Positions 4,128 to 64,000 of a DNA stretch of 64,000 bases are shown piece by piece. The DNA comes from Candidatus Nealsonbacteria bacterium DGGOD1a (GTDB lineage: Bacteria > Patescibacteriota > Minisyncoccia > Minisyncoccales > UBA5738), in contig CP092821.1 in assembly GCA_022530585.1 (NCBI GenBank), positions 198,222 through 262,221 on the forward strand, written 5' to 3'. The translations under genes were made by a program, and so were the position numbers. Below the pieces are notes generated by a model. The model was not told where the DNA came from, did not search any database, and was given only the letters and a program-made list of their open reading frames with translations. Position 1 is the first letter of the stretch; each line of letters opens with the position of its first letter.

Positions 4128-4281
4128 AAAATTCGAAGCACGAATGTCGAATATCGAAACAAATTTAAAATTCGAATGTTCAAATGTCCGAAACGAAATT
4201 TAAAATTCGTTTTAAAATTTCGAAATTTGAAACTTCAGATTTGTTTCGATATTCGATATTCGATATTCGAAATCTGAAATT
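4128..4281. repeat. AT-rich palindromic intergenic module, 'TTCGAA/CGAATAT' dialect (P1)
   Basis: Fills the pilT-pilC spacer. The arms cgaatatcgaaacaaat and atttgtttcgatattcg are inverted copies. The left ~40 nt (aaaattcgaagcacgaa..tcgaata.tcgaaacaa) recur at 38880-38920. Confidence 0.6.
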
Positions 4282-5487
4282 ATGAGGTTCGTATATCAAG
4301 CCAGGTTGAAAAACGGGGAAGTCAAATCCGGGGTGATGGAGGCTGATTCGGTGCAGACCGCGGCCGAGATTTTGCGCCGCGACGATCTTTTCGTCACATT
4401 CCTGAAGAAAGAGGATCAGAGCCTCGCCAAAAGATTTCATTTTTTCGAGGGGGTTTCGGGAAAAGATGTCGCGATTTTTTCGCGCCAGCTGGCGGTGATG
4501 TTTCACGCCAATGTGTCGCTGGTCGAGTCTTTGCGGGTTATCGGCGCCCAGCTTGCCAACCAGAATTTTCGGGAAAAGATTCTAAAGATTTCCCAAGTCG
4601 TCGAGGCGGGATCGCCCTTGTCGGCCGCCTTGGCCAAATATCCGGATATTTTTTCGCCGTTTTTCGTCGCCATGGTGCGCGCCGGCGAGGTTTCGGGCAA
4701 CCTTTCGGAACAGTTCAATTATCTGGCCAATTATCTTGAAAAACAATATTATCTGGAAGGGAAAGTGAAGGGCGCCATGGTTTATCCGATCGTCATTCTG
4801 GTGGTGATGGTGGCCGTGCTGTTCCTTTTGGCCTATTTCGTGATGCCGAGTATGGTGGAAATGCTGACCAGCGCCGGCGTTGAATTGCCGCCGCTGACCC
4901 AGTTTGTGATTGCCGCCACGAATTTCATCCGGGGTATCGGGGGAGTTTTGGCATTGCTCGCGGCGATCGCTTCGGTGGTGGTCATCATGAGGGTTTCCCG
5001 GACGAAAAAAGGCAAAGAATTTTTTGATCGTCTGGCGCTGCGCATTCCAATATTCAACAATCTCACGAAAATGCTTTGCGTGAGCCGTTTCGCGGACAAT
5101 CTTTCCACGCTGATCACGGGCGGAATTCCGATCACCCAGGCTCTGGAAATTACCAGCACGATCGTCGGGAACACGGTTTACCGCGATGTGATTATGAAAA
5201 CCTGCGACGGGGTGCGCAAGGGGCAAACGATTTCTTCGATACTCTTTAATTATCCCGAACTCTTTGCGCCGATGTTTTCACAAATGATCCTCGTGGGCGA
5301 GCAAACCGGTTCGCTGGATAAAAGCTTGCTGGTTATGGTGTCGTTTTATGAAAAAGAGACGGAGCGGTCGATTGACAGTATGCTGATACTTATCGAACCG
5401 ATAATGATCATTGTCCTCGGTTTGGTCGTGGGCGGAGTGGTGGCGTCGGTGATGATACCGCTTTATTCGTCGATGGGAGCCGCCTAA
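4282..5487 (+). CDS. pilC: type IV pilus platform protein PilC/GspF family
   Basis: 401 aa with duplicated T2SSF-type domains, three hydrophobic TM segments, and the motifs LSxALxxYPxxFSPxFVAMVRAGEVSG and FAPMFSQMILVGEQTGSL. Confidence 0.9.
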   Translation: MRFVYQARLKNGEVKSGVMEADSVQTAAEILRRDDLFVTFLKKEDQSLAKRFHFFEGVSGKDVAIFSRQLAVMFHANVSLVESLRVIGAQLANQNFREKILKISQVVEAGSPLSAALAKYPDIFSPFFVAMVRAGEVSGNLSEQFNYLANYLEKQYYLEGKVKGAMVYPIVILVVMVAVLFLLAYFVMPSMVEMLTSAGVELPPLTQFVIAATNFIRGIGGVLALLAAIASVVVIMRVSRTKKGKEFFDRLALRIPIFNNLTKMLCVSRFADNLSTLITGGIPITQALEITSTIVGNTVYRDVIMKTCDGVRKGQTISSILFNYPELFAPMFSQMILVGEQTGSLDKSLLVMVSFYEKETERSIDSMLILIEPIMIIVLGLVVGGVVASVMIPLYSSMGAA

Positions 5488-5584
5488 AACAATTTCTATC
5501 TTGCAATCTACCGCGTAAATTTGATAAAATAAACGAACCGCGAACCGGTGCGGCCGCCAGAAGCGGCAACCGGCGCGGCCAATT

Positions 5585-6790: not shown

Positions 6791-7261
6791 ATGACAAATC
6801 GCAAAGAGGGTTTCACCCTTATTGAATTGCTGGTGGTTATCGCCATTATCGGCATTTTGGCCGGCATGGTGTTGGTGTCGATGGGCGGCGCGCGGCAAAA
6901 AGCCCGGGACGCCAAAAGAATGTCGGATATGCGCCAATTGCTTTCGGCGCAGGAGATGTATTACGGCGAAAAGGACGCGTATTATCCGGTATTGACGGAC
7001 AATAGCGTGGCTACGGGAACGATTGCCAACGGCACTACGGTTTATATGACTGTTCCGGTGGATCCGGGATCTCCTGCCAGTGCTTGCACTGCCGGTACCA
7101 CTGCCAATGTTTACTGCGCGATGGCAAACACCGGCGACCTGCAGAAGTTTTGCTATTTCGCGCGTTTGGAGGGCGAGGCGAAATATTACACCGCGTCCCA
7201 AGGCGGCAATGTCAAGAAGACCACAAAACCGACTTTGGCCACTTGCAATACGGCGGACTAG
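6791..7261 (+). CDS. type IV major pilin, paralog 2
   Basis: Leader MTNRKEG|[26 protein letters not shown]. The N-terminal ~55 codons and the C-terminal FCYxARLEGExKYYTASxGGNVK block are near-identical to paralog 1. The centre is divergent. Confidence 0.85.
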   Translation: MTNRKEGFTLIELLVVIAIIGILAGMVLVSMGGARQKARDAKRMSDMRQLLSAQEMYYGEKDAYYPVLTDNSVATGTIANGTTVYMTVPVDPGSPASACTAGTTANVYCAMANTGDLQKFCYFARLEGEAKYYTASQGGNVKKTTKPTLATCNTAD

Positions 7262-7282
7262 CCAAGGAATCGAACACAGAGA

Positions 7283-7306
7283 ATCGGCGAGTTTCGCCGA
7301 TTTTTC
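7283..7306 (+). terminator. intrinsic terminator after pilin 2
   Basis: atcggcga-gtt-tcgccgat forms an 8-bp stem followed by ttttt. Confidence 0.7.
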
Positions 7307-7359
7307 GTTACGCGGCCGTTGTGATAAAATAAATTCGTCGAATGATTTTTCCAAGATGT

Positions 7360-7461
7360 CTTGAATTATGAAACGCTTTGCATTCGGGGTCTATCCCTTG
7401 CGTAATCGCAAGGGTTAGACCCCTCTAAAGCATTTGCATTTAATGATTTCGCAATTCAAAG
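7360..7461. mobile_element. 102-bp palindromic MITE-like element, copy 1
   Basis: Terminal inverted repeats cttgaattatgaaacgctttg / gatttcgcaattcaaag. The central hairpin is ggggtctatcccttgcg-taatc-gcaagggttagacccc. A near-identical copy lies at 57395-57496. Confidence 0.6.
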
Positions 7462-7464
7462 AAT

Positions 7465-7626
7465 ATGGATATTTTATTTTGGTATGTTTTTGTTTCGATA
7501 TTCGCCGTCGGTATGATTGTCGGCAGTTTTTTGAATTGCTTGATCTGGCGATTGCATAATAATGAAAGCGCGCGGGGAGGGTTGACTTTGCAATTACTGT
7601 TTGCGCAATTAAAATACAGACAGTAA
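7465..7626 (+). pseudogene. orphan 5' fragment of prepilin peptidase gene (pilD remnant, 53 codons)
   Basis: MDILFWYVFVSIFAVGMIVGSFLNCLIWR... 7465-7574 matches 8621-8730 and includes a 73-nt exact run. After the homology ends it reads into unrelated sequence, with a stop at 7624-7626. Confidence 0.75.
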
Positions 7627-7642
7627 CACTATTTGTATTTGA

Positions 7643-8420
7643 ATGATACGGATGGAAAATAAAAAAATTGCATCATACGCTTTTATTGACGCTTCCAATC
7701 TGTTCTATGGCGGGGAGAAAAGTTTGGGTTGGAAAATAGATTACGAAAATCTTTTTGAATATTTAACGGAAAAATATTCAGTAAGAAAAGTTTTTTATTT
7801 TGGCGGCGCGGAAATCCATAAATTCAATTTTGACTATTTAAAAAATGATACCGTGCCGATTGCCGAATTGAAAAAATATCTTAAAAATGAAATCAAAACC
7901 GGCGGCAGTAAGTTAAATGAAGCGGATATGATATTATTAAGCCGGCATTTGCAGAGAGTTAAGTTCTATTCCAAGCTTGAGTCTTTTGGATATGAATTGC
8001 GGCTTAAACCCGTAAAATTATATTATCACGATAGTAGTACGGTTAAAAAAGCGAATTGCGATGTTGATATGGCCTTTTATTGAGTGCAATACCTCGGGGC
8101 TTTGCCCCGGGGTGCACCAAGAGGATTCCAAAGGGGTGCCCCCTTTGGTCGTCGTGCGGGGTTCATACCCCGCTCGACGAAATACATTTGGAAAATATAT
8201 TTTTGATTTGATGAAGGAAATGAACAATTTTGATAAAGCGATCATTCTTTCCGGCGATGGCGATTTTTTACCGGTTTTGAAATATTTGAAAGCGTGCGGC
8301 AAGGGAATAACCATATTATCCCGCGGCCCGAGAACCGCGCGCGAAATTCGGCAATTTGCCGGTTCTGATTTCAGGGATTTTACCAGGCTGGAAAGAATAT
8401 TGAAGTTTGACGGGAAATAA
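7643..8420 (+). pseudogene. NYN/LabA-like (PIN-related) nuclease-domain gene interrupted by a 118-nt insertion
   Basis: The N-part ends ...KANCDVDMAFY* at 8083. The C-part resumes as IFDLMKEMNNFDKAIILSGDGDFLPVLKYLK in another frame. Deleting 8081-8198 joins the two in frame. The motifs FIDASNL, CDVD and SGDGDF fit the NYN fold. Confidence 0.7.
8081..8198 (+). mobile_element. three-hairpin repeat element, copy A (inserted inside the NYN gene)
   Basis: Three hairpins: cggggc-ttt-gccccg, ccaaagggg-tgc-cccctttgg and gcgggg-ttcata-ccccgc. Linker aagaggattcc. Flanked by tat/tat. Copies at 18578-18690 and 55153-55267 share the same architecture. Confidence 0.6.
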
Positions 8421-8424
8421 ACTA

Positions 8425-8512
8425 CCGCGCGTCGTCAGGGTATTCTTGCGGAAAAGTTTGTTTCCCCGCCATTCATCCCCGGGGCAAAGCCCCGAGGTAT
8501 TCTGGCGGGTAA
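8425..8512 (-). repeat. partial/diverged copy D of the three-hairpin element (inverted relative to copy A)
   Basis: 8474-8498 is the exact reverse complement of the 25 nt aatacctcggggctttgccccgggg at 8088-8112. An atgaatggcgggg segment (cf. ttgatggcgggg) follows. The middle hairpin is missing. Confidence 0.4.
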
Positions 8513-8620
8513 ATAACAAAAAGCGGACATGCGAAATATCCGCTTCACGTTTAGTAAGCATATACTATCATTCGACAAGACATTGTCAATAGCGAGCGTA
8601 GCAAGCATTGTATAAACATT

Positions 8621-9460
8621 ATGGATTTTATTTTTTGGTATGTTTTTGTTTCGATATTCGCCGTCGGTATGATTGTCGGCAGTTTTTTGAATTGCTTGAT
8701 CTGGCGATCCTATAATAACGAAAGCGCGCTGGCCGGCCGGTCGTATTGCCCGAATTGCCGCCATAAACTGGCGTGGTTTGATTTGGTTCCTTTGTTCAGT
8801 TTTTTATTTTTGCGCGCCAAATGCCGTTATTGCGAAAAACCGATATCGTGGCAATATCCTTTGGTTGAGTTGGCAACCGGAATTCTTTTCGTCGCCGCGG
8901 CGCGGGCGTTCGCCTCCGGGATTTTTAACGGTTATCTGCCGGTGATTTCCGCGCTTGAGCTGTTGGCGTATTGGGCGATTTTGTCTTCGCTGGTTGTGGT
9001 GTTTGTCGCGGATTTGCGCTGGTATTTTATTCCCGACGGCGCGATCGCCGCGGGGATTTTTGGCGCCGCGGTTTTAACGATCGCGCGATTTTTTGAAAGC
9101 GATTTTATTTTTCACCGATTCGATTGGAACATAATTTTCAATCCGCTGTTGTCGGGGCTGTTCGCCGCGCTGTTTTTTCTGGCGATATTTTTGTTTTCGC
9201 GCGGAAAGTGGATCGGCTTTGGCGATGTCAAATACGCGCTTTTGATGGGATTGGCGCTTGGTTTTCCCGAGACTTTGCTGGCGCTGTTCCTTGCGAATTT
9301 TTTTGGTGCTATAATAGGTTTAGGATTGATCGCGGTTCGGCGCAAGAAGATGTCGTCGGAGATTCCTTTCGGGCCGTTTCTGGTTGGCGGAACGCTGGTC
9401 GCGCTGTTCTTTTCCGGTTCGATACTGAATTGGTATTTGTCGATAGGGATGCATAATTAA
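8621..9460 (+). CDS. pilD: prepilin peptidase / N-methyltransferase (A24 family)
   Basis: 279 aa. N-terminal Zn-finger-like CPNCRHKL...CRYCEKPISWQYPLVELATG, multiple TM helices, and the catalytic-Asp contexts ADLRWYFIPD and IGFGDVKYA. Confidence 0.9.
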   Translation: MDFIFWYVFVSIFAVGMIVGSFLNCLIWRSYNNESALAGRSYCPNCRHKLAWFDLVPLFSFLFLRAKCRYCEKPISWQYPLVELATGILFVAAARAFASGIFNGYLPVISALELLAYWAILSSLVVVFVADLRWYFIPDGAIAAGIFGAAVLTIARFFESDFIFHRFDWNIIFNPLLSGLFAALFFLAIFLFSRGKWIGFGDVKYALLMGLALGFPETLLALFLANFFGAIIGLGLIAVRRKKMSSEIPFGPFLVGGTLVALFFSGSILNWYLSIGMHN

Positions 9461-9576
9461 AAATTTAAAAATCAAAATGAAAAACGACAAATTAAAATAT
9501 TAAAATGTCGAATTTCAATTTTGTCATTTTCCATTTTGATTTTTACATTTTGCATTAAGCTTCATAAATAGGCGCG
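9461..9576. repeat. AT-rich palindromic intergenic module, 'AAATCAAAATG/TGACAA' dialect (P2)
   Basis: aaaaatcaaaatgaaaaacgacaaa ... ttttgtcattttccattttgattttt are long imperfect inverted arms spanning the whole pilD-to-minor-pilin spacer. Confidence 0.6.
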
Positions 9577-15653: not shown

Positions 15654-18509
15654 ATGATTAGACTTGGAAAAAATATAGGATTTGCCATTTTGATTTCCGT
15701 GCTTGCAATCGGCGGTTGTTGGCACTTTTTCAACTTTCAAAATGATTCCTTGGTTGAGGCTGACAGCTTGCAGGGTTGCGCCAGCGGTGAAGCCTGCCCT
15801 TCAGGTACGGCTTGCAACAATACGGTCTGTTGCCCGTCCGGTTATTGCGGTTGGGGCGATAATGTTTATTTTGTCCGCGAATGCGTTGCCAGCGGCCAAA
15901 TTCGAGAAAATTCCTGGGCGAGTTTGATTTGCCGTTCCGGGATATGGAAAGTGCGGTTGAATGGCTGGGGTTGCAATAATTCGGCTTGGGGCGGTTGCGA
16001 TGAGGGATGGTGCCAAACTTTCGGCGATGCCGGTTTTTGCCGAAGTTGCGCTTTTGACTCTGGCTTGGCTCAAGGTTGTGCCAACGGTGAAGCATGTCCT
16101 TCGGGAACTTTATGCAATAATACGGTTTGCTGCCCTTCGGGTACTTGCGGTTATGGAGACGGCCTTGTTTTTGGTCGCCAATGCGTGGCTAGCGGCGAAA
16201 TAAGAGAAAATCTTTGGGGCCGGCAGATATGCCGCAACGGGGTTTGGAAGACCTTGGTGGGCGGCTGGGGTTGTGATCTTTTTGGGGAGTGCGAATCCGG
16301 AAGTTGCCAAAAGATTGGCGGTTACCATTATTGCATATCTTCCTTGCCGTTTTCTTCCGCGTACACTTCAACCGCTTACAATACGGGAATGTATTGCCAG
16401 GGGACTTGCCGTACTTGCGCGTCAGAGGGCAATGTTTGCGGCAATATGAGCGATAATTGCGGCGGTACGATTTATTGCGGCGATTGTTCTTCCGGCCAAA
16501 CTTGCGCTTCCGGCCAATGCGTTTCTAGTTGTGTCAATGATTGTTCTTCCAGCGGCGCCAAGCAATGCGGCGGCAACGGTGTCCAAACCTGCGGCAATTA
16601 CGATGCCGACAGCTGTTTGGAATGGAGTGCGGCGGTTGCCTGTTCTTCGGGACAAATCTGTGCGTCCGGCCAATGCGTTTCTAGTTGTGTCAATGATTGT
16701 TCTTCCAGCGGCGCCAAGCAATGCGGCGGCAACGGTGTCCAAACCTGCGGCAATTACGATGCCGACAGCTGTTTGGAATGGAGCGCGGCGGTTGCCTGTT
16801 CTTCGGGACAAATCTGTGCGTCCGGCGTTTGCGTTGCCAGTAGCGACGATTGTACCGCCGAGTATTCCAAAAAATGTTATAACGGCAATGTTTATTGGTA
16901 TGATTCTTGCGGAGTTCGCGGCGATGTTTACCAGAATTGCGGTAATAGCGGGTCGACCTCAAATTATCAATGCGGCGGTAATTGGCTTCAGCAGGAAACC
17001 GTTGTTAGAGATTGCGCCGCCGGCGCGTGCACTCAAGATTCATCATGGAATAATGTTCAGGATTGCGCTTTGAGCGGCAAGATATGTAAAAATGGCGTTT
17101 GTATTGCCGCCTGTGTCAATGATTGTTCTTCTAGCGGCGCCAAGCAATGCGGCGGCAACGGTGTCCAAACCTGCGGCAATTACGATGCCGACAGCTGTTT
17201 GGAATGGAGCGCGGCGGTTGCCTGTTCTTCGGGACAAATCTGTGCGTCCGGCGTTTGCGGCGTTAAAGACGCGCTTGCGCCTGTAATTTCAGGTTTGGCG
17301 CCTTCGGGGAAAGCATACAATTCCAGCGTGGTTTTGGTTGCGACCACCAACGAGGCCGCGGATTGCCGTTATAGCTGGTATGATAGAAGTTTTGACCAGA
17401 TGACTTTACCGTTCAAAACTTCAAACAAGCTTTATCATTCGGCGCCGGTATCTTTGAGTTCTTACGGCAAGTACACTTATTATGTGCGTTGCAAAGACGC
17501 TTTCGGCAATGCCAATCAGATACCAAGCAAAATATCGTTTGATTATGTTTCGGCAACCGGTGCCGCCACTATTGCCGCGCCAAATATTCAAGCGTCTTCA
17601 ACTGTTTCATCCACCGCGGGTCTCGCGGATAAAACTCCGGCGGCGATTTCCGGTCTGGCGCCATCGGGCGCCATCACCAATGCCACGACCGTTATTTCTT
17701 GCGTTACCGGCGAAAAAGCGACTTGCAGGTACGATATTGCCGATACGGATTACGATTCGATGGAAAATACGATGGATACCGCCGCCGGCGTTCATCAGAG
17801 CAAAACAATAACATTGTCCAGTCCCGGAAATTACAATTACTATGTCCGTTGCAAAGACGCGGCGGGCAACAAGAACGCCGATTCGGTTAAAATCAATTTT
17901 GATTACGCGCCAGCTTCAAAAGTTCCGCCGGTAGTTTCCGAATTGCAACCTGCCAGCCCGGTTTATCAGAAAAGCGTAATGCTGACGGCGGTTACCGATA
18001 AGGCGGCTCAATGCCGCTGGTCAACCCGGGATCAGGATTTTGACGCGATGCCGGGACAATTTTCGGCAACCGATGGCCAAAACCAGCAAGCGATAGTGGA
18101 TTTAAACGATTACGGCCGATACGATTATTATGTGCGGTGCAAAGATGACGCGGGCGGCAAGGCCGCGGTTTCTTCGGTGATTAGTTTTGAATATAAAAAT
18201 CCGGAGCTGGAAGCCGCGGTTTTAAATGAAGTCGCCATTCCCGCTCAACAAGAACCTGTCGCTTGCGGAAAACCGGTTGCCGGCGCCAGCGACGGCGCTT
18301 GCAGCGCCGCGGTTGATTGTGTTTGCGATCCGGACTGCTCGGCCGGCGGCGGCGATGATCCTGATTGCGCCGCCGCGGCTGATAATTCAAGCGCCGCCGG
18401 CAATTTGTTGATTATCGCTATTCCGGTTGTCCTGATCGTTGTTGTCGTCGCGTTGATCGCGGCGGTGAAAAAAAGACGCGGCGGGGAAGACGGCGGCGAA
18501 GAAAACTAA
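15654..18509 (+). CDS. giant Cys-rich surface protein: shared N-terminal Cys modules, 52-aa Cys repeats, 3x Ig-like repeats, C-terminal TM anchor
   Basis: N-terminal signal/possible lipobox LAIGGC. Residues ~70-270 are near-identical to the 10824 protein. Four copies of C(V/x)NDCSSSGAKQCGGNGVQTCGNYDADSCLEWSAAVACSSGQICASG. Three repeats of SGLAPSG...CRY...Y.YYVRCKDxxGN. C-terminal LLIIAIPVVLIVVVVALIAAV-KKRRGGEDGGEEN. Confidence 0.75.
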   Translation: MIRLGKNIGFAILISVLAIGGCWHFFNFQNDSLVEADSLQGCASGEACPSGTACNNTVCCPSGYCGWGDNVYFVRECVASGQIRENSWASLICRSGIWKVRLNGWGCNNSAWGGCDEGWCQTFGDAGFCRSCAFDSGLAQGCANGEACPSGTLCNNTVCCPSGTCGYGDGLVFGRQCVASGEIRENLWGRQICRNGVWKTLVGGWGCDLFGECESGSCQKIGGYHYCISSLPFSSAYTSTAYNTGMYCQGTCRTCASEGNVCGNMSDNCGGTIYCGDCSSGQTCASGQCVSSCVNDCSSSGAKQCGGNGVQTCGNYDADSCLEWSAAVACSSGQICASGQCVSSCVNDCSSSGAKQCGGNGVQTCGNYDADSCLEWSAAVACSSGQICASGVCVASSDDCTAEYSKKCYNGNVYWYDSCGVRGDVYQNCGNSGSTSNYQCGGNWLQQETVVRDCAAGACTQDSSWNNVQDCALSGKICKNGVCIAACVNDCSSSGAKQCGGNGVQTCGNYDADSCLEWSAAVACSSGQICASGVCGVKDALAPVISGLAPSGKAYNSSVVLVATTNEAADCRYSWYDRSFDQMTLPFKTSNKLYHSAPVSLSSYGKYTYYVRCKDAFGNANQIPSKISFDYVSATGAATIAAPNIQASSTVSSTAGLADKTPAAISGLAPSGAITNATTVISCVTGEKATCRYDIADTDYDSMENTMDTAAGVHQSKTITLSSPGNYNYYVRCKDAAGNKNADSVKINFDYAPASKVPPVVSELQPASPVYQKSVMLTAVTDKAAQCRWSTRDQDFDAMPGQFSATDGQNQQAIVDLNDYGRYDYYVRCKDDAGGKAAVSSVISFEYKNPELEAAVLNEVAIPAQQEPVACGKPVAGASDGACSAAVDCVCDPDCSAGGGDDPDCAAAADNSSAAGNLLIIAIPVVLIVVVVALIAAVKKRRGGEDGGEEN
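16512..16823 (+). repeat. tandem 156-nt (52-codon) coding repeat, two near-identical units; third unit at 17112-17258
   Basis: ggccaatgcgtttctagttgtgtcaatgattgttcttccagcggcgccaagcaatgcggc... restarts at 16668. A related module lies in the 53119 gene. Confidence 0.85.
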
Positions 18510-18577: not shown

Positions 18578-18690
18578 TTCTTTTTATACCCCGTCGGCTT
18601 GCCGCGGGGGACAAAAAGAATGAGGATTCCAAAGGAAGCATCTTTTGGTTGATGGCGGGGTTAATACCCCGACATCAATGCATTTTTTAT
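18578..18690 (+). repeat. three-hairpin repeat element, copy B
   Basis: ttctttttataccccgtcggcttgccgcgggggacaaaaagaatgaggattccaaaggaagcatcttttggttgatggcggggttaataccccgacatcaatgcattttttat. Located between the giant protein gene and the SEDS gene. Confidence 0.6.
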
Positions 18691-22577: not shown

Positions 22578-22619
22578 TTGCGTCTTAGCCTCGTTTTTCT
22601 GTTTTTCAGTGGAATTTTA

Positions 22620-22748
22620 GTGAAAATTTAAAATTTAGAAATCAAAAATCAAAATGACAATGTAAAATTGAAAAATTATTCAATTCGATGATTCTCAATT
22701 TTAAAATGTAATTTTCAATTTTGATATTTTATTTTTTAATTTATTATT
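22620..22748. repeat. AT-rich palindromic intergenic module, P2 dialect
   Basis: gaaatcaaaaatcaaaatgacaatgtaaaattgaaaaatta ... aaaatgtaattttcaattttgatatttt, ending at the rpoB start codon. Confidence 0.55.
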
Positions 22749-25700
22749 ATGGCGGCGCTTAAAACAAAAAATTTCGGCAAAGCAAATGTATCGCTGCCTT
22801 TGCCGTATTTGCTCGTGCTTCAAAAAGAAAGCTGGGATATGTTCTGGGGAAACGATTTAAAAGAGCTTTTTACCGAGATTTCGCCCATTCGCGATTACAC
22901 CGGCAAAGAGCTTGAGCTTTGGATCGAGGATTTTAAACTCGACGAAACCAAATATAAAAACGATCTTGAAGCGCGGATGAACAATGATTCCTATGAAGCG
23001 TCGATCCGGGTTAAGGTCAGGCTGGTTAATTTAAAAACCAAGGAATCCAAGACGCAGGAAATTTTTCTGTGCGATTTTCCGTTAATGACCGAAAGGGGAA
23101 CCTTTATCGTCAATGGCGTGGAGCGCGTTTGCATTTCCCAGTTGATCCGTTCGGCGGGCGTGTTTTTTTCGGCGCAAAACATCGGCGGAAAAAACTTTTT
23201 TGGCACTAAAATTATTCCCAATCGCGGTTCCTGGCTGGAGTTGGAAACCGCCCATACCGGCTTTATCGGCGTGAAAATCGACCGCAAGCGCCGCGTTCCG
23301 GCGACGACTTTGTTGCGAGCCTTCGGCATTGACAACGACAACGCGATCAAAGAGCTTTTCGCCGATGTTAACAAAGGCGAGGTTGATTTTATCGAGGAAA
23401 CCATTAAAAAAGATCCGACCCACAACCAGGCCGAGGCCTTGGTGGAAATATACCAGCGTTTGCGGCCCGGAGATCTGGCCACCGCCGACACGGCCAAGGA
23501 ATTGATTTGGAATATGTTCTTTAATTTTGAACGGTATGACCTTTCCAAAGTGGGGCGCTGGAAGATGTGGAAGCGTCTGCCGCAACTCAAAGCCAAAGAC
23601 AAAACCGGCGATAAAGTTGAAATGAAAGACCGGGTTTTAACCGTGGACGATATCGTCGCGGTGATCAAAGAAATTATTCGTTTGAACAACGATCCTTTGG
23701 CAAAACCCGACGAAATCGATCATTTGGGCAATCGCCGCGTGCGGACTTTGAATGAGCTTTTGGTTAACCGCCTGCGGTTGGGTTTTATGAGAATGGAGCG
23801 CATCATCAAAGACCGGATGTCGACTTTGGAAGTTGTCGATTTGTCGCCGATGCAGTTGATCAACCCCCGGCCGGTGATGGCGGTGATCAAGGAATTTTTT
23901 TCCAGTTCGCAATTATCGCAGTTTATGGACAACGAAAATCCGCTGTCGGAACTTGAACACAAACGCCGTCTGGCGGCAACCGGCCCGGGCGGTTTGACCC
24001 GCGAACGCGCGGGATTTGAAGTGCGCGATGTCCAGCCTTCGCATTACGGCCGCATTTGTCCGATCCAAACTCCGGAAGGCCCCAATGTGGGCTTGGTGGG
24101 CTATTTGGCGTCTTACACCAAGATCAATAATTTCGGTTTTCTGGAAACGCCGTATTATAAAGTTACCAAAGGCAGAGTGACCGATGAACTGGTATATATG
24201 ACCGCGGACGAAGAAGAAAAATACAATATCGCCACCGCGATCGCGCCTTTGGACGAAAAGAACAATATCATTCCCAAAAAACTGGAAGCCAGAATGAAGG
24301 GCGAACCGGAAATTTGCGCCAAGGAAGATATTGATTATATTGATGTTTCGCCGCAGCAAATTCTTTCGGTGGGTACTTCGCTGATTCCGTTTTTACAGAA
24401 CGACGATGCCAACCGCGCGTTGATGGGTTCTAATATGCAGCGGCAATCGACGCCGCTGGTTAAGCCCGATCCGCCGCTGGTGATGACTGGCAGCGAGGAA
24501 AGGATTGCCCATGATTCGGGCCATATTTTGTTGGCCGAGGGCGCGGGCGTGGTCACCGAAGTTGACGGCAGCCATATCACCGTCAAATACGATGACAAGG
24601 AACTGGGCGAAAAAACTTATTATTTGAGAACATTTTTGAGAACCAATCAATATACTTGTTTCCATCAGAGCGCGATTGCCAAAAAAGGCAAAAAAGTGAA
24701 AAAGGGCGAAGCGATGTGCGATGGCGGTTCGATTGTCAACGGCCATCTGGCTTTGGGCCACAATATTCTGGTGGCGTTCACTTCATGGCGCGGCGGAAAT
24801 TTTGAAGACGCGATTTTGCTTTCGGAGAAATTGGTCGCCAACGACAAATTCACCACGATCCATATGGAGAATTTCGCCTGCGATGTGCGCGAAACCAAAC
24901 TGGGTCCGGAAATGACCACCTATGATATCCCCAATGTCTCCGAGGAAAAACTTAAAGATTTGGACGAAGAAGGAGTGGTTCGTATCGGCGCCGAAGTCAA
25001 GCCCAATGATATTTTGGTGGGCAAGATTTCGCCCAAGGGCGAACAGGAGCTGACCGCCGAAGAGCGTTTGTTGCGCTCGATTTTCGGCGAGAAAGCCAAA
25101 GATGTAAAAGACACTTCGTTGATGATGGAACATGGCAAGCGCGGCCGCGTGGTGGGAGTTAAGGTGTTTTCGCGCGAACAGGGCCACAAGCTTGAGCCGG
25201 GCGTGATCAAAAGGATCGAAATTGAAATCGCGGAATTGAGAAAAGTGCGCGCGGGCGACAAGCTTGCCGGACGCCACGGGAACAAAGGCGTTATTTCGCG
25301 CGTTTTGCCGATAGAAGAAATGCCCTATTTGGAAGACGGCACGCCTGTGGATATGGTGTTAAATCCGATGGCGGTGGCGTCCCGTATGAATTTGGGACAG
25401 ATTTTGGAAACGCATTTGGGTTACGCGGCGCATGAATTGGGTTATCACGCGGTTACGCCGTCGCTTTCCGGCGCCAAGGAATCCGATATCAAAGTGGAAT
25501 TAAAAAAGGCCGGATTGTCCGAAGACGGCAAGGAAAAACTTTTTGACGGCCGGACCGGTTTGCAGTTTCCGGGAAAAATTACCGTTGGTTACATTTATAT
25601 GATGAAACTTATCCACATGGTCGAGGATAAGATACATACCCGCAGTATTGGACCGTATTCGCTGATCACGCAGCAGCCTCTGGGAGGCAAAGCGCAGTTT

Positions 25701-39033: not shown

Positions 39034-39543
39034 TTAGAAAGGGATGTCCTTTACATTGATGTCGCCGTCTTCTTCGATGATCGGGATATCGGTTTCCTCG
39101 GGCGCGGATTTGGCCGCCGGATTTGCTTCGCCATAACCTTGGGCGGAGGCGGGTTTCTGGTTGTAATTCGCCGGTGTTTGCGGAGATTGATAGCCGCCGC
39201 TTGATTCATTGTTGCGCGGGCCCAATTGCATCGATTCGGCGATGATTTCGGTGCGATAGCGTTTATTGCCCGCCTGATCTTGCCAATCCCGCGTTTGGAG
39301 CCGGCCTTCAAACATTGCCAGAGATCCTTTTTTCAGATACTGTCCGGCGATTTCCGCCAGCCGTCCAAAGAGAACCAGATTGTGAAATTCGGTTTTTTGC
39401 TGGCGCTGGTTGGTGTTTTTGTCGACATAGAACCGGTCGGTCGCCAGACCGAAATTCGCCACTTGCTGGCCGCTGGGCATGACTCGGATTTCCGGATCGC
39501 GCGTGAGCCGGCCGATCAAGAATACTTTGTTTAGATTCATCAA
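39034..39543 (-). CDS. ssb: single-stranded DNA-binding protein
   Basis: OB fold [19 protein letters not shown]...[14 protein letters not shown], a Gly/Pro/Gln-rich linker, and the acidic tip [18 protein letters not shown]. Confidence 0.92.
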
Positions 39544-39670
39544 ATTAAAATCAAAATGTAAAAATCAAAATGAAAAATGACAATGCAAAATTAAAAATTA
39601 TTAAATTTTAAAATTTGCCCATTTCACATTTTAAATTGTAATTTTGATTTTTGATTTTTCAATTTACAAT
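39544..39670. repeat. AT-rich palindromic intergenic module, P2 dialect
   Basis: aaaatcaaaatgtaaaaatcaaaatgaaaaatgacaatgcaaaattaaaaatta ... cacattttaaattgtaattttgatttttgatttt, inside the rpsF-ssb-rpsR operon. Confidence 0.6.
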
Positions 39671-40282
39671 TTACTTTAGGATTTCGTCCAGTTTTTCCTC
39701 AATGTCGCGCAATTCGGCTTTGATTTTTGTCCGGCGTTTGGGTTTGGCGGGTTTCGCTTCTTCGGAAGCGGGTTTTTCTTCCTTGGTTTCTTCTTTGGGA
39801 ATTTCGATTTTTTCTTCCTTGGTTTCTTTAATTTCTTTTTCCGCAATTTCCGCCGCGGGTTTTTCCGCCTTTTTTTCTTCCGCCGCGGGGAAGCTTTGCG
39901 CTACGGTTGTTTCGATTCCCGCGGACGCGGTTCTTGCCGCGGGCCGTTCGCGCCGCGGTTCTCTTTTCAGCTTTTCCGGGTCATACCAAATTACCAAGCC
40001 GCGCAGTATTTCGGGGATCGTGTCGGTTTCTTTTTTAAAATCAACCGCGAACGCCGGTTCGCTCTGAAATAGGATGGTATTAACATAGGCCGCATCTTGT
40101 TTTTTAATGCGGTAAGCCAGCCTTTTTTTATAGGATTTGGGCAGGTCGGTGACAGTGCCGTTTTTGGCGGTTATCAGCGCGACCAACTTATCTTGAAGCT
40201 TTTTGGCCTCATCCTCGGGCATATCCTGCCGGGTCAGGTAAGTGAACTCGTAATGCTTCATCATATTGCTTTTTTCGGCCAT
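39671..40282 (-). CDS. rpsF: 30S ribosomal protein S6 with long Lys/Glu-rich C-terminal extension
   Basis: MKHYEFTYLTRQDMPEDEAKKLQDKLVALI... forms the S6 core (~100 aa). About 100 aa of KE-rich low complexity follow. The start may be the MMKHYE Met. Confidence 0.85.
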   Translation of the reverse strand: MAEKSNMMKHYEFTYLTRQDMPEDEAKKLQDKLVALITAKNGTVTDLPKSYKKRLAYRIKKQDAAYVNTILFQSEPAFAVDFKKETDTIPEILRGLVIWYDPEKLKREPRRERPAARTASAGIETTVAQSFPAAEEKKAEKPAAEIAEKEIKETKEEKIEIPKEETKEEKPASEEAKPAKPKRRTKIKAELRDIEEKLDEILK

Positions 40283-49611: not shown

Positions 49612-49908
49612 ATGAAAATATCTCCGTGCGCCGATAATATATTGATCGAATCGATCAAAGGCGAAGAAAAAACCAAATCAGGCATATTTTTACCGGAAAC
49701 CGCTTCAAAGGAACGGCCCGAACAGGGCAAGGTGATTGCCGCGGGTCCGGGCAAAAAAAATAAAAAGGGCGAAATAATCCCTGTTTCAATAAAAGTGGGC
49801 CAGAAAGTTTTGTTTTCAAAATACGGCCCCAACGAAATCAAAGTCGACGGCAAAGAATATTTGATCGCCAAAGAAGACGATATACTTGCGATAATCGAAG
49901 AAAATTAA
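49612..49908 (+). CDS. groES: co-chaperonin GroES
   Basis: 98 aa. Motifs P..D.ILIE....EEKTKSGIFLPETA, GKVIAAGPG and KVGQKVLFSKYG. Confidence 0.95.
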   Translation: MKISPCADNILIESIKGEEKTKSGIFLPETASKERPEQGKVIAAGPGKKNKKGEIIPVSIKVGQKVLFSKYGPNEIKVDGKEYLIAKEDDILAIIEEN

Positions 49909-51654
<1,746 letters not shown>

Positions 51655-55152: not shown

Positions 55153-55267
55153 ATAAAAAAATACATTGATGTCGGGGCATTAACCCCGCCATCAACCAAA
55201 GGATGTTTCCTTTGGAATTCTCATTCTTTTTGTTCCCCGCAGCGAGCTGACGGGGTATAAAAAGAAT
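55153..55267 (-). repeat. three-hairpin repeat element, copy C
   Basis: The reverse complement reads ttctttttataccccgtcagctcgctgcggggaacaaaaagaatgagaattccaaaggaaacatcctttggttgatggcggggttaatgccccgacatcaatgtatttttttat. Confidence 0.6.
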
Positions 55268-57394: not shown

Positions 57395-57496
57395 CTTTGA
57401 ATTACGAAACGCTTTGTATTTGGGGTCTATCCCTTGCGTAATCGCAAGGGTTAGACCCCTTCAAGGCATTTGAATTCAATGGTTTCGTAATTCAAG
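57395..57496. mobile_element. 102-bp palindromic MITE-like element, copy 2
   Basis: ctttgaattacgaaacgctttgtatttggggtctatcccttgcgtaatcgcaagggttagaccccttcaaggcatttgaattcaatggtttcgtaattcaag. Most positions are identical to 7360-7461. Confidence 0.6.
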
Positions 57497-57660: not shown

Positions 57661-57748
57661 GGAGGGGTCGCATAGCGGCCGAGTGCGCGCGCTTGGAAAG
57701 CGCGTATACCGCAAGGTATCGCGGGTTCAAATCCCGCCCCCTCCGCCA
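57661..57748 (+). tRNA. tRNA-Ser (anticodon GGA), CCA encoded
   Basis: GGAGGGG...CGCGC-TTGGAAA-GCGCG-(long variable arm TATACCGCAAGGTATC)-GCGGG-TTCAAAT-CCCGC-CCCCTCC-G-CCA. Confidence 0.92.
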
Positions 57749-60944: not shown

Positions 60945-62210
60945 ATGGTTTTCGCCCTCCCCAAAATTTTAATGTTCGGTTGGGAATTTCCGCCTCACAA
61001 TTCCGGCGGATTGGGTGTGGCCTGCCAAGGTTTGACCGGCGGTTTGGCGTCGTTGGGAGCAAAAATAACTTTTGTTTTGCCCAAAAAAATCAATTGCCAG
61101 CCGGCGCCGTGCCGCTTTGTTTTCGGGGATGCATGGACCGGCAAAAAAAGATATTTGTCCGGAGTTGATATGATCGCGGTTAATTCGCCGCTGTCGCCCT
61201 ACCTGACCGCGGAGAGTTATTCGCGGGAGATTGATCGCTGGGGAGAAAAAGATTTCACGCCGCGGCATTCAATCTGGCGCGAAGATTTGGTGGGGGAAGC
61301 GATGCGCTACGGCGAGATTGCCGAAAATATCGCGCGAGTCGAAGATTTTGATGTGATCCATTGCCATGATTGGCTTTCTTTGCCCGCGGGGATGGCCGCC
61401 AAAAGGGCTTCGGGCAAGCCGCTGGTGTTCCATATCCATGCCACCGAATACGACCGGGTGGGCGAAAACGGGTTGAATCGCGACATTTGCCTTATCGAAA
61501 AACGGGGGTTTGAAATTGCCGACGCGGTGGCCGCGGTGAGCGATTATACCAAGCGGCGTGTTGTCGACTGCTATGGCGCCGCGCCGGAAAAAATCACGGT
61601 GGTGCCCAACGCCGTCAATCACGCGGAATACGCGCCGGCGGTTTCCGACGAATTTTTAAAATTGAAAAAAAACGGCAAAAAAATCGTGTTGTTCGTGGGG
61701 CGGCTCACATTCCAAAAGGGGCCGGATTATTTTTTGAAAGCCGCGCGCGCCGTGGCGCGGATTGATAAAAGCGCGATGTTTGTTTTTTCCGGATCGGGAG
61801 ATATGGAGCGGTGGCTGATCGAAGAAGCCGCGCGGCTGGGATTGGCCGACCGAGTGGTTTTTGCCGGATTCTTGCGCGGCGCGGATTTGGCGCGTCTTTA
61901 CAAAGCCGCGGATTTATATGTGATGCCGTCGGTGTCCGAACCGTTCGGGCTCACTTCGCTTGAAGCGCTGGCCAGCGGCGCGCCGATATTGGTTTCGCGT
62001 CAGTCGGGAGTGGGAGAAATGGTTTCCAATTGCTTGAAGTGCGATTTTTGGGACACAAATCAAATGGCGGCAAAAATTCTGGCGGCATTGCGCTATTCGG
62101 CGCTGGGCGAAGAATTGCGCCAAAACGGATTGGTTGAAGTTAAAAAATTCGACTGGGTCGATTCGGCAAAAAAATGCTTGGGAATTTACCAAAGCGTTAT
62201 GACCGCTTAA
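60945..62210 (+). CDS. glycosyltransferase (glycogen/starch-synthase-like, GT4/GT5 type)
   Basis: 421 aa. N-terminal FPPHNSGGLGVACQGL and C-terminal PSVSEPFGLTSLEALASGAPILVS (EX7E-type). Confidence 0.8.
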   Translation: MVFALPKILMFGWEFPPHNSGGLGVACQGLTGGLASLGAKITFVLPKKINCQPAPCRFVFGDAWTGKKRYLSGVDMIAVNSPLSPYLTAESYSREIDRWGEKDFTPRHSIWREDLVGEAMRYGEIAENIARVEDFDVIHCHDWLSLPAGMAAKRASGKPLVFHIHATEYDRVGENGLNRDICLIEKRGFEIADAVAAVSDYTKRRVVDCYGAAPEKITVVPNAVNHAEYAPAVSDEFLKLKKNGKKIVLFVGRLTFQKGPDYFLKAARAVARIDKSAMFVFSGSGDMERWLIEEAARLGLADRVVFAGFLRGADLARLYKAADLYVMPSVSEPFGLTSLEALASGAPILVSRQSGVGEMVSNCLKCDFWDTNQMAAKILAALRYSALGEELRQNGLVEVKKFDWVDSAKKCLGIYQSVMTA

Positions 62211-62333
62211 AATTAAAAGTTGAAAAATCAAAATGTAAAATGACAATGTAAAATAAAAAATTACAAAATCAGAATTCCGCCAGGAATTCTACCTTAATTT
62301 TTAATTTTGATTTTTACATTTTCAATTTGAAGC
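62211..62333. repeat. AT-rich palindromic intergenic module, P2 dialect, with central GC hairpin
   Basis: gaaaaatcaaaatgtaaaatgacaatgtaaaat...agaattcc-gcca-ggaattct-accttaatttttaattttgatttttacatttt. Almost the whole spacer is repeated at 63564-63698. Confidence 0.65.
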
Positions 62334-63563
62334 GTGCCCAATATTTGTCTTTATCTTCACACCCATCAGCCGCGGCGATTGAAAAAATTCTCGGTTTTCG
62401 ACATTGGCAATCATGGCGACTATTTCGATCACGAGAACAACCGGCGGATTTTGGAAAAAGTCGCGCGCAAAAGTTATTTGCCGGCCAACCGGATGTTTTT
62501 GGATTTGATCCGCAAATCGCGCGGGCGCTTCAAATTGAGCTTGAGCGTCACCGGAATTTTACTGGAGCAATTGGAGGCCGAGTTTCCCGAAGTTTTGAAA
62601 AGTTTCAGGGATTTGGTGGAGACGGGTTGCTGCGAATTGGTTTCGGAAACCTATTACCACTCTTTGGCTTCGGTTTATTCCGCGGATGAATTCCGCCATC
62701 AAGTGGCGTTGCAGAACAATGCTTTGGAAAAACATTTTGATTTCGCGCCGAAATTTTTTCGAAATACGGAATTGGTGTATAATAATAATATCGCCGCCAT
62801 GGTGGAGCAAATGGGGTTTTCCGGAATGTTGGCCGAAGGGTGGGATGAGATTTTGCAATGGCGTTCGCCCAATTTTTTATACAAGGCTAAAAACGGTTCT
62901 TTGCGCCTGCTGGCGCGGAATTACAAGCTTAGCGATGATATCGGGTTCCGTTTTTCCAATCGCGAATGGAAGGAATGGCCGCTCACGGCGGAAAAATACG
63001 CCGAGTGGGTGAATCTTTTAAACATTGATTCGGGCGCGCAAACATTGAATCTCTTTATGGATTATGAAACATTCGGCGAACACCAATGGGAAGAGACCGG
63101 GATTTTCAAATTTTTCAAAGCGCTTTTCTGGAAGATTTCGGAAAATCCGCGCAATCGATTCGTTTTGCCGTCGCGGCTGATCGAGGAAATCCAGCCGGTC
63201 GGAGAATTGGATTTTCACCGTTTGGTTTCCTGGGCGGATATGGAGCGCGATTTGAGCGCGTGGAACGGCAATAAAATGCAGCAGGCGGCGCTGGAAAACA
63301 CATACGCGCTGGAAAACACCATTAAGGAAACAAAGGATGAGGCGCTGTTGGACGAGTGGCGCAAACTGCAAACCAGCGACCACTTCTACTATATGTGCAC
63401 CAAATGGTTTTCCGACGGCGATGTGCACAAATATTTCAATCCGTACGAAAGTCCCTACGAATCGTTTATCGCGTTTATGAATATCCATAATGATTTAAAG
63501 ATTAAGGCGGAAAAAATTTTGGAGTCAAAAAAGGTCGAACAAGCAAGCATGGTTAAAAATTGA
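62334..63563 (+). CDS. glycoside hydrolase family 57 (alpha-amylase/branching-enzyme type)
   Basis: GTG start, 409 aa. Motifs LYLHTHQPRRL, ETYYHSL, FMDYETFGEHQW and WADMERDLSAWxGN. Confidence 0.85.
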   Translation: MPNICLYLHTHQPRRLKKFSVFDIGNHGDYFDHENNRRILEKVARKSYLPANRMFLDLIRKSRGRFKLSLSVTGILLEQLEAEFPEVLKSFRDLVETGCCELVSETYYHSLASVYSADEFRHQVALQNNALEKHFDFAPKFFRNTELVYNNNIAAMVEQMGFSGMLAEGWDEILQWRSPNFLYKAKNGSLRLLARNYKLSDDIGFRFSNREWKEWPLTAEKYAEWVNLLNIDSGAQTLNLFMDYETFGEHQWEETGIFKFFKALFWKISENPRNRFVLPSRLIEEIQPVGELDFHRLVSWADMERDLSAWNGNKMQQAALENTYALENTIKETKDEALLDEWRKLQTSDHFYYMCTKWFSDGDVHKYFNPYESPYESFIAFMNIHNDLKIKAEKILESKKVEQASMVKN

Positions 63564-63698
63564 GAAATCAAAATGTAAAATGACAATTTAAAATTGAAAA
63601 TTACGCGCTCGGACATATTCGTCTCTGGCGATAAAAATCAAAATTCCGCAAGGAATTTTACCTCAATTTTTAATTTTGATTTTTGCATTTTAAATTTT
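63564..63698. repeat. AT-rich palindromic intergenic module, P2 dialect (duplicate of 62211-62333 with ~35-nt insert)
   Basis: gagaaatcaaaatgtaaaatgacaatttaaaattgaaaattac[gcgctcggacatattcgtctctggcgat]aaaaatcaaaattcc-gcaa-ggaatttt-acctcaatttttaattttgatttttgcatttt. Confidence 0.65.
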
Positions 63699-64000
63699 AT
63701 GATTAAAACAGCTCCCAAAAAAAAGTTGCCGTCGATGATCACCGATGTCGAACCGGAAAAAAGTTTTTGGCTAAGCGACGGCCGCACTTTGAAAAATCTG
63801 AAAGAATTGGCAATCGCTCTTGAAACAATGGACGAGTCGGTTTGGAATTATCATGTTACCGCCGAAAAGAACGATTTTGCCAATTGGATCGAAGAGATAT
63901 TCGGGCAAAATTTGTTGGGTTCGTCCATTCGCAAGGTGAAGAGCCCGCGCACCGCCGCCAAAAGGATACAAAGCAAGCTCGAGATACCCAAGTTCTGGTC
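63699..64000 (+). CDS. hypothetical protein, 5' part (continues past window end)
   Basis: ATG at 63699, open to base 64000. FWLSDGRTLKNLKELAIALETMDESVWNYHVTAEKNDFANWIEEIFG. I did not recognise the family with confidence. Confidence 0.5.
   Translation, partial: MIKTAPKKKLPSMITDVEPEKSFWLSDGRTLKNLKELAIALETMDESVWNYHVTAEKNDFANWIEEIFGQNLLGSSIRKVKSPRTAAKRIQSKLEIPKFW

Follow-up and report, generated by a model that had tools for sequence, protein, structure and literature searches.

Palindrome-associated transposable elements (PATEs) of the IS200/IS605 group of insertion sequences (ISs) move as single-stranded DNA ('peel and paste'), with a Y1 HUH transposase, TnpA, supplied in trans. IS200 of Salmonella and E. 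coli is very small, encodes a Y1 TnpA alone and carries a hairpin leader between its left end and the start codon, and ISDra2 of D. radiodurans has TTGAT as its target motif. The subject of this study is a 127-nt element that interrupts a NYN/LabA gene in a 64,000-nt stretch of DNA (hereafter the window) from the Candidatus Nealsonbacteria DGGOD1a lineage, together with the repeat family of which it is one copy and an IS200-type element resident in the same organism. The 127-nt element is very probably a PATE, that is, a gene-less, non-autonomous member of IS200/IS605, recently inserted into the NYN gene, and its relatives constitute a previously undescribed PATE family in bacteria of the candidate phyla radiation (CPR).

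Elements of the IS200/IS605 group insert 3' of a transposon-adjacent motif (TAM), end in a transposon-encoded motif (TEM) that differs from the TAM at position 3 or 5, leave no duplication and are excised without a scar (PMC10055086); for ISGst2 the TAM is TTTAT (PMC10055086). The term PATE is used here as previously defined (PMC3119063). Like the HqIRS families of Haloquadratum and the PATE-like ISGst mini-elements of G. stearothermophilus, the present family encodes no protein, lacks terminal inverted repeats, carries a near-terminal palindrome and makes no duplication, has a heterogeneous tail with a conserved terminal oligonucleotide, forms homogeneous young subfamilies, and shares its genome with a coding IS that bears a similar end hairpin (PMC3119063, PMC10055086). 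Unlike those PATEs, it is found in CPR/Patescibacteria and is built of three hairpins in a fixed order, of which the left one alone is IS-like; its right-end hairpin is of other sequence and lies 19-35 nt from the end, and the element is not a simple deletion derivative joining the left and right ends of a resident IS copy. It resembles ISGst2 (IS605 family, Geobacillus stearothermophilus) in having TTTAT as TAM and a TEM that departs from it at position 3 or 5, and in the scarless excision that would be expected of it. ISGst2 and ISDra2 are autonomous, with tnpB and a guide RNA, whereas the resident IS described here is 602 nt long with tnpA only, and is likened by description to IS200, having tnpA alone and three leader hairpins; the 127-nt element is without coding capacity. 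By description the element is also like the pneumococcal BOX, the rickettsial RPE and the enterobacterial ERIC repeats, which are modular, hairpin-rich and dispersed and measure roughly 100-150 nt, but RPEs insert in frame and are translated, whereas the present element adds a stop codon and a frameshift, and to our knowledge BOX and ERIC have neither a defined pentanucleotide target nor a cognate transposase.

Results

The interrupted gene and the boundaries of the insertion

The open reading frame (ORF) at 7643-8083 (146 aa) ends in ...CDVDMAFY followed by TGA, and the SGDGDF motif lies downstream in a different frame, within ORF 8061-8420. The original prediction had described an ORF that stops just inside an insertion with this motif in another frame beyond it, which was confirmed in the sequence, and had proposed that deletion of 118 nt (8081-8198) would repair the gene; this deletion does give an in-frame fusion with an open product of 219 aa. 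A search of the product against Pfam NYN (PF01936) gave a match of 69.8 bits, above the gathering score of 24.2 bits and above either half of the gene alone. Since the halves abut on the PF01936 profile (Table 1) and the insert folds into three hairpins, this is a real NYN/LabA gene interrupted by a structured insert. Of 106 positions conserved at 90% or more, the broken gene keeps 101, with none of the 36 in its 3' piece lost, and it has no further lesion. Homologs of the repaired protein number 2947; among the 120 matches listed, the full-length ones are 64-73% identical and all come from CPR bacteria. In the closed Ca. Nealsonbacteria DGGOD1a genome the two gene halves are annotated as separate proteins (UMX48121.1 and UMX48122.1).

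Because any deletion of 118+3k nt that removes the stop codon is in frame, the in-frame result alone leaves the boundary unfixed. The 118-nt repair leaves three surplus residues, IFD, at the junction, where the spacing of F[YHW] directly before LMKE is invariant in 119 of 119 retrieved full-length homologs. The 9 nt coding for IFD (8199-8207, ATTTTTGAT) are, by alignment, homologous to the right ends of other copies of the element, and are therefore part of it. All deletion registers were scored against a profile built from the 119 homologs. Deletion of 127 nt, in registers 8079-8205 to 8082-8208, restores AFYLMKE and scores 366.0 bits, against 357.5 bits for the 118-nt deletion; registers that place TTTAT in the element give AFDLMKE and 362.4 bits, with a D at a position where it is never seen in the family. 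By exact-sequence look-up, public data contain the 127-nt-excised product in two forms, P0244 with 216 aa and P0243 with 213 aa (starting at the second ATG), and lack the 118-nt-excised product. Excision of 118 nt at face value is thus ruled out by homolog alignment, profile scores and exact look-up, and the expectation that the repaired protein would align across the junction to the NYN family holds perfectly for the 127-nt version and, for the 118-nt version, only with a three-residue insertion.

The gene is intact, in the same context (T2SSF, pilins and a 53-aa pilD fragment), in five assemblies from five samples (L039-L043: ERZ27315046, ERZ27315034, JGI 3300002219, JGI 3300002446 and ERZ922797), all of the same organism (Ca. 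Nealsonbacteria DGGOD1a lineage), so that a search of related genomes for the uninterrupted gene was successful. In these five assemblies the DNA of the empty site is GATATGGCCTTTTAT directly followed by TTGATGAAGG, with GCCTTTTAT and TTGATGAAG meeting at the joint. Compared with the window, these contigs lack exactly 127 nt and show no other difference in the gene (0 in 642-651 nt); no base is duplicated at the empty site beyond 3 nt of microhomology. An apparent difference of L041 at 8462-8551 is a run of N and no real difference. As the empty-site gap shows, the insertion occupies 127 nt (8081-8207) and is not the precise 118-nt split at 8081-8198 first described. The insertion opens with TGA in the frame of the gene, and its 127 nt are not divisible by 3, so that the gene is split into the 146-aa ORF and an out-of-frame 3' remnant.

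The filled allele is also carried by a sister contig (L001, 99.7% identical to the window), by the LQYC01 metagenome (L015 and L026, with contigs breaking inside the element) and by the closed Ca. Nealsonbacteria DGGOD1a genome. With filled and empty alleles both in public assemblies, the insertion is polymorphic and very young, and the claim that the gene was inactivated recently agrees with the identity of the two alleles outside the gap and with the retention of the conserved residues.

The element family and its fold

Copies were sought by one core scan each of genome and metagenome collections, followed by profile searches of the fetched loci (L numbers). The family so assembled has more than 30 copies in metagenomes and in several CPR metagenome-assembled genomes (Minisyncoccales, a Saccharibacteria-labelled bin and unclassified bins) and falls into four subfamilies (A-D), the copy in the NYN gene (c1) belonging to D and the two other full copies of the window to A. 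Most copies are 110-133 nt long, with lengths of up to 164 nt where a nested hairpin is present. Subfamily D, which is young, is represented at 8 sites whose flanks are unrelated, its copies there being 97.6-100% identical; the element is also a place at which assemblies break. That the element is or was mobile, as originally proposed, is upheld by these near-identical copies at 8 unrelated sites and by the coexistence of filled and empty alleles. Of 25 copies examined, 24 are intergenic, and their relations to neighbouring genes (13 sense, 22 antisense) show no sense bias. A scan of viral contigs for the element core gave 0 matches, and no association of the element with NYN genes outside this organism was found.

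Two candidates were rejected: a match from the genome scan (L002) is a tRNA T-arm false positive, and a supposed second interrupted gene at a D copy in L024 is a pair of adjacent genes, since only the downstream ORF of its 345-codon post-excision frame has a homolog (P0121). In the window, a degenerate, internally deleted relative (c4) adjoins the NYN gene; its hairpin 1 inner stem equals that of c1 at 25 of 25 nt, its outer stem is its own (CCCGCCA/TGGCGGG), and hairpin 3 is reduced to its 3' half. L039, a contig with the empty allele, also has c4, which therefore predates the 127-nt insertion. Nested insertions of about 62 nt (L024:6150-6420) and 23 nt (L023:430-640) occur at the same internal point of the element, between ATTCC and AAAGG at the 5' foot of hairpin 2, and recall the small repeats of Haloquadratum that target PATE palindromes (PMC3119063).

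The three hairpins of the original prediction are real: fold z-scores against shuffled controls range from -6.7 to -9.3 in three copies, with -9.3 for the insert in the NYN gene, and the same three-hairpin fold was obtained for every copy folded singly. In-register helix cells are paired in 90.5% of cases, against 40-56% with slid partners. Ten pairs have changed on both sides, and the observed level of covariation was reached in 0 of 500 shuffles; parts of hairpins 2 and 3 were set by the search pattern, and invariance there is uninformative. The outer stems of hairpin 1 differ completely among subfamilies and always pair (GTGCA/TGCAC, TTCTTTTT/AAAAAGAA, TTATTTGG/ACTAAATAA and AAATCTGTAAC/GTTACAGATTT), and the stem of hairpin 3 is wholly replaced yet still pairing in L003:7834 and L016:7880. 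G.T cells outnumber A.C cells by 43 to 13 (the cells are not independent), an excess which indicates that one particular strand folds; for c1 this is the NYN coding strand. The excess is also indirect evidence for reactions on single-stranded DNA. The element is too short for a protein. No terminal inverted repeats are present, the left end (TGAGTGCAATACC) having no match to the reverse complement of the right end (ATCAAAAATATAT) in any subfamily. In an Rfam search of the window, tRNA alone was found at the gathering threshold, and 7300-8700 gave chance-level matches only at E up to 10.

Target and terminal motifs

The register of the 127-nt insertion is by itself ambiguous (8079-8205 to 8082-8208) and was set by a tandem pair in L032, in which the TTTAT that ends an A copy is followed at once by the first base of a D copy, a single TTTAT being shared. 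From this joint, the end of one element was the target of the next, and the D start is set directly after TTTAT, at TGAGTGCA. All 8 of 8 D copies lie directly 3' of TTTAT; A and B copies lie directly 3' of TTTAT, TTGAT or TTAAT, with one CTAAT exception. As background, TTTAT accounts for 0.22% of window positions and TT[TGA]AT for 0.63%. The right-end motif (TEM) is TTGAT, TTAAT or TTTAT in D and TTTAT in A, and copies of B and C end in TTTAC, as does the resident IS. Young copies bear a left pentamer unlike the right one, the two being TTTAT and TTGAT (c1, L018, L023) or TTGAT and TTTAT (c3, L004). Since the left motif differs from the right one and the right one travels with the subfamily, duplication is ruled out; models with target-site duplications of TAT, ATT or 7-9 bp were rejected on the empty site and on these mismatched motifs. 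The tat on either side of c1 that had been described as flanking the insertion is indeed readable on both sides, but it is an overlap of the host TTTAT with the A/T-rich tail of the element and not a target-site duplication.

The resident IS200-type element

No transposase was found in the window or in ~200 kb of loci by motif heuristics and by Pfam searches of unassigned ORFs. In a 10-kb extension of the 3' end of the window, a TnpA ORF of 149 aa lies ~6.3 kb past the window end (L032:17949-18398); L032 (GCA_029216075.1) is from the same organism and is 99.6-100% identical to the window over 11.7 kb. The predicted protein matches Y1_Tnp (PF01797) over the full profile at 106.9 bits, has HAH as its HUH motif and its catalytic Tyr in RYIQNQ, and is intact as judged from these features. 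Ca. Nealsonbacteria DGGOD1a has a protein 99% identical to it, with the annotation IS200/IS605 transposase. The IS is 602 nt long, with boundaries taken from four independent contexts: it starts with AATGTTTTCA directly after flanks ending in TTGAT, TATAT or TAAAT, and ends in ...TCATTTAC, with the terminal motif TTTAC. With tnpA as its one gene and no tnpB seen, the resident IS is of the minimal IS200 type. In its boundaries, target motif, terminal motif and end hairpins it agrees with the anatomy of the left end in the small-element family.

The left- and right-end hairpins of the IS, CCCTG(T)CGGTCTTGCCGCAGGG-AAC, are homologous to hairpin 1 of the small element. Hairpin 1 of subfamily A (CCCCGTCGGCTTGCCGCGGGG-AAC) has the same extra-helical T as the IS hairpin, and that of subfamily C (CCCTGAGGTCTTGCCTCAGGG) matches it at 19 of 21 positions, with one compensatory pair. 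The hairpin stands 10-11 nt from the target motif in the IS and in subfamilies A and C alike, and a hairpin-1 profile found the IS left end with E=0.004 (nhmmer). The left end of the IS has three consecutive hairpins ahead of the tnpA start. The paper on the DGGOD1a genome gives 39 predicted transposases in 1.16 Mb and leaves these small elements unmentioned (bioRxiv 10.1101/2022.04.20.488981).

Table 1. Positions in the window of the interrupted gene, the parts of the element and the other copies.
Feature	Position	Strand	Basis
NYN/LabA gene, 5' part (codons 1-146, ...CDVDMAFY)	7643..8080	+	ORF list; Pfam NYN 31.5 bits, profile positions 5-80; DNA 100% identical to uninterrupted allele
Host target motif TTTAT (TAM), in Phe-Tyr codons	8076..8080	+	Present in empty site, GCCTTTTAT directly followed by TTG
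Probable PATE-type element, 127 nt, subfamily D (copy c1); first in-frame codon TGA	8081..8207	+	Exact 127-nt gap against L039-L043
Hairpin 1: outer stem GTGCA/TGCAC, inner stem 8092-8100/8104-8112	8084..8117	+	Fold; homologous to end hairpins of resident IS200-type element
Unpaired linker (C)AAGAGGATT, best-conserved primary sequence of the family (ATT part set by search pattern)	8118..8127	+	Alignment
Hairpin 2 (CCAAAGGGG TGC CCCCTTTGG)	8128..8148	+	Fold; compensatory variants, e.g. CCGGAGG/CCTCCGG in L001:6412-6522
Hairpin 3: lower stem CGTCG/CGACG, mismatch, upper stem GCGGGG/CCCCGC	8149..8180	+	Fold; 4 pairs changed on both sides
A/T-rich tail with terminal motif TTGAT (TEM, 8203-8207)	8181..8207	+	Homologous tails in subfamilies B, C and D; missing from empty site
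NYN/LabA gene, 3' part (LMKEMNNFDKAIILSGDGDF... to stop TAA 8418-8420)	8208..8420	+	Pfam NYN 32.6 bits, profile positions 79-138; identical to intact allele
c4, degenerate internally deleted relative, ending ...GTTTAT and overlapping NYN stop codon	8417..8512	-	blastn, nhmmer, alignment, fold; boundaries inferred
Subfamily A copy, 112 nt, between surface-protein gene and ftsW/rodA; TAM TTTAT, TEM TTTAT	18579..18690	+	Intergenic
Subfamily A copy, 113 nt, antisense to both neighbour genes; TAM TTGAT, TEM TTTAT	55153..55265	-	Intergenic

Neighbouring repeats and strain differences

A direct repeat of 119 nt (window 7458-7576 and 8614-8732, 92% identical) brackets the whole NYN gene. Each copy represents the 5'-terminal part of the gene for prepilin peptidase (pilD), the first forming a truncated 53-aa ORF (7465-7626). 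Elsewhere, an intact NYN homolog stands between two tandem methyltransferase paralogs (L029; 83% identity over 300 nt), and L027 shows yet another, unrelated set of neighbours. The bracketing repeats, the changing neighbours and the uniform 64-73% identity across CPR classes (among the 120 listed of 2947 homologs) suggest that the NYN gene is itself a wandering, horizontally mobile cassette.

Further small repeats were encountered. A family of 99-nt repeats (window 7361-7459 and 57397-57495, 90% identical, and also at the end of L022) has a hairpin at its centre and TTGAATT(A/G)(T/C)GAAA as terminal inverted repeats, and looks like a classical miniature inverted-repeat transposable element (MITE); one copy stands immediately before the NYN cassette, and about 165 nt separate the other from the tRNA downstream of it, at 57661-57745. 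In Parcubacteria bacterium Gr01-1014_30, a hairpin repeat of ~70 nt (L027:4767-4834 and 5473-5541, CCCCGTA...TACGGGG, copies 97% identical) lies just downstream of the intact NYN homolog and is another small structured repeat family in a CPR genome. AT-rich palindromic repeats with motifs such as AAAATCAAAATGTAAAAT and its complement lie between many genes of the window (for example 9452-9570, 22610-22750, 39535-39680, 49900-50005, 62204-62334 and 63548-63700) and may be promoter or terminator regions or another repeat family.

Between the window and L001, strains that are 99.7% identical, the pilT-pilC intergenic sequences (window 4134-4279; L001:6419-6637) are entirely different: L001 has an A-type three-hairpin element and an AT-rich repeat, and in the window a palindrome stands instead, AT-rich and unrelated, with arms at 4132-4201 and 4202-4271. 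This difference was rejected as a clean empty site, the whole intergenic region being replaced. Single-base indels in homopolymer runs separate the same two sequences at 8153 (a C-run in a hairpin of the element) and at 8913 (pilD), where the indel breaks the pilD frame in L001 (a 227-aa call against 279 aa); both are possibly assembly errors and not biology. Substitutions between the sister strains cluster in the pilin gene (17 of 39 differences in 7028-7339) and in a repeat-rich surface protein gene (17521-17901), which suggests recombination or diversifying selection on surface structures.

Discussion

In the PATE reading, the element would have been moved as single-stranded DNA by the resident TnpA or by a close paralogue among the 39 transposases reported for the genome, with hairpin 1 as the putative left-end binding site of TnpA. 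The insertion lies directly 3' of TTTAT, within the Phe-Tyr codons, without duplication, and the immediate TGA and the frameshift inactivate the NYN gene. This recent, polymorphic insertion should be reversible, as excision would be scarless and would restore the gene exactly.

Several points weigh against this reading. No second IS-type hairpin is present near the right end of the element: hairpin 3 (GCGGGG...CCCCGC) is unlike both hairpin 1 and the right-end hairpin of the IS and lies 19-35 nt from the end, against 3 nt between the IS hairpin and TTTAC, and the stem core CTGCGG/CCGCAG is shared only in subfamily C. In the IS608 paradigm similar hairpins stand at both ends. Subfamily C has a different left flank (ATTTA, TTTTA or TTTTT). 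As for guide pairing, the ATA that directly precedes hairpin 1 is, by inspection, a possible partner for TAT in the TAM; neither a convincing guide at the right end nor covariation was seen. Hairpins 2 and 3 and the linker TGAGGATTCC are conserved better than the ends, which could mean an extra function. The filled and empty alleles show polymorphism, not its direction, and mobility is read from sequence comparisons.

The conservation of the interior bears on an extended version of the PATE reading, in which the family would do more than travel as a passive PATE: its second and third hairpins and its linker would have their own function, and the NYN gene of this archaeal epibiont could be switched on and off reversibly through scarless excision and renewed insertion. 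These two hairpins and the linker are kept across CPR lineages by compensatory change, and only hairpin 1 resembles a transposase-binding hairpin; their own function could be, for example, right-end recognition without an IS-type hairpin, or that of a transcribed RNA module. The switch is considered because both alleles coexist with otherwise identical gene sequence. This extended version is considered unlikely.

Spread of the family as a repeat resembling repetitive extragenic palindromes (REPs) or bacterial interspersed mosaic elements (BIMEs), by a domesticated REP-associated Y1 transposase (RAYT), would involve the same enzyme class (Y1 HUH), and it accords with the name 'RayT' given by JGI to some TnpA homologs and with the intergenic position of nearly all copies. 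We regard it as quite improbable, since the Y1 gene lies inside a 602-nt element that is found in at least 3 contexts with precise ends, and is thus part of an IS and not a single-copy RAYT flanked by REPs, and since the repeat is a unit of 110-130 nt with three different hairpins in fixed order and defined ends, not a set of 20-40-nt palindromes in alternating orientation.

A classical MITE, moved by a DDE transposase with target-site duplication of TA, TAT or ATT, is implicit in the original prediction and draws on an A/T trinucleotide readable at either side of most copies (tat in c1, ATT in A and D copies). There is little room for such an element where terminal inverted repeats are absent, where the empty site has no duplicated base beyond the 3 nt of microhomology, and where the left motif is conserved over 5-6 nt and differs from the right one in young copies; moreover, one copy (L013) ends in TTTAT directly followed by CCCG, without ATT, and the tandem A-D joint shares one TTTAT.

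A primary role of the element as a structured, functional RNA gene or as a cis-regulatory module (a terminator or guide-RNA-like scaffold), to which dispersal would be secondary, has hardly any credibility. The better conservation of hairpins 2 and 3 and of the unpaired linker than of the ends, the strong covariation with its asymmetry of G.T over A.C, and the similar three-hairpin leader ahead of tnpA at the IS left end would all accord with it, but copies show no sense bias to neighbouring genes and no Rfam matches, the varying left flank means that there is no conserved upstream promoter, and the strand asymmetry is equally expected from recognition of top-strand single-stranded DNA.

That the gene is still functional because the 118 or 127 nt are removed from the RNA or skipped in translation (through a mini-intron, a ribozyme or a gene-60-type bypass from TAT to TAT), a view which takes in the intron-like alternative raised in the original prediction, can for practical purposes be set aside: the matching TAT codons, the stop right after the first of them and the hairpin at the gap start do resemble a bypass site, and the gene is almost without decay, but no Rfam family, introns and ribozymes included, matches, a bypass would leave IFD where all 119 homologs keep a fixed spacing, copies elsewhere lie between genes (24 of 25) and in either orientation, the behaviour of the element is that of DNA (filled and empty alleles, the latter without the gap, and tandem insertion), and the little decay follows from the recency of the insertion.

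With the insertion read as a PATE, the locus offers a clean natural before/after pair for 'peel and paste' transposition in an uncultivated CPR bacterium. The kind of event is ordinary; its documentation is unusually good, the unbroken version of the gene being also in public data. For annotation, the case is a caution that an in-frame fusion after in-silico excision does not alone set the boundaries of an element, and exact boundaries are now set for a small-repeat family that fragments assemblies and splits gene calls. For the organism, the many transposases reported for its 1.16-Mb epibiont genome would appear to be accompanied by active non-autonomous passengers.

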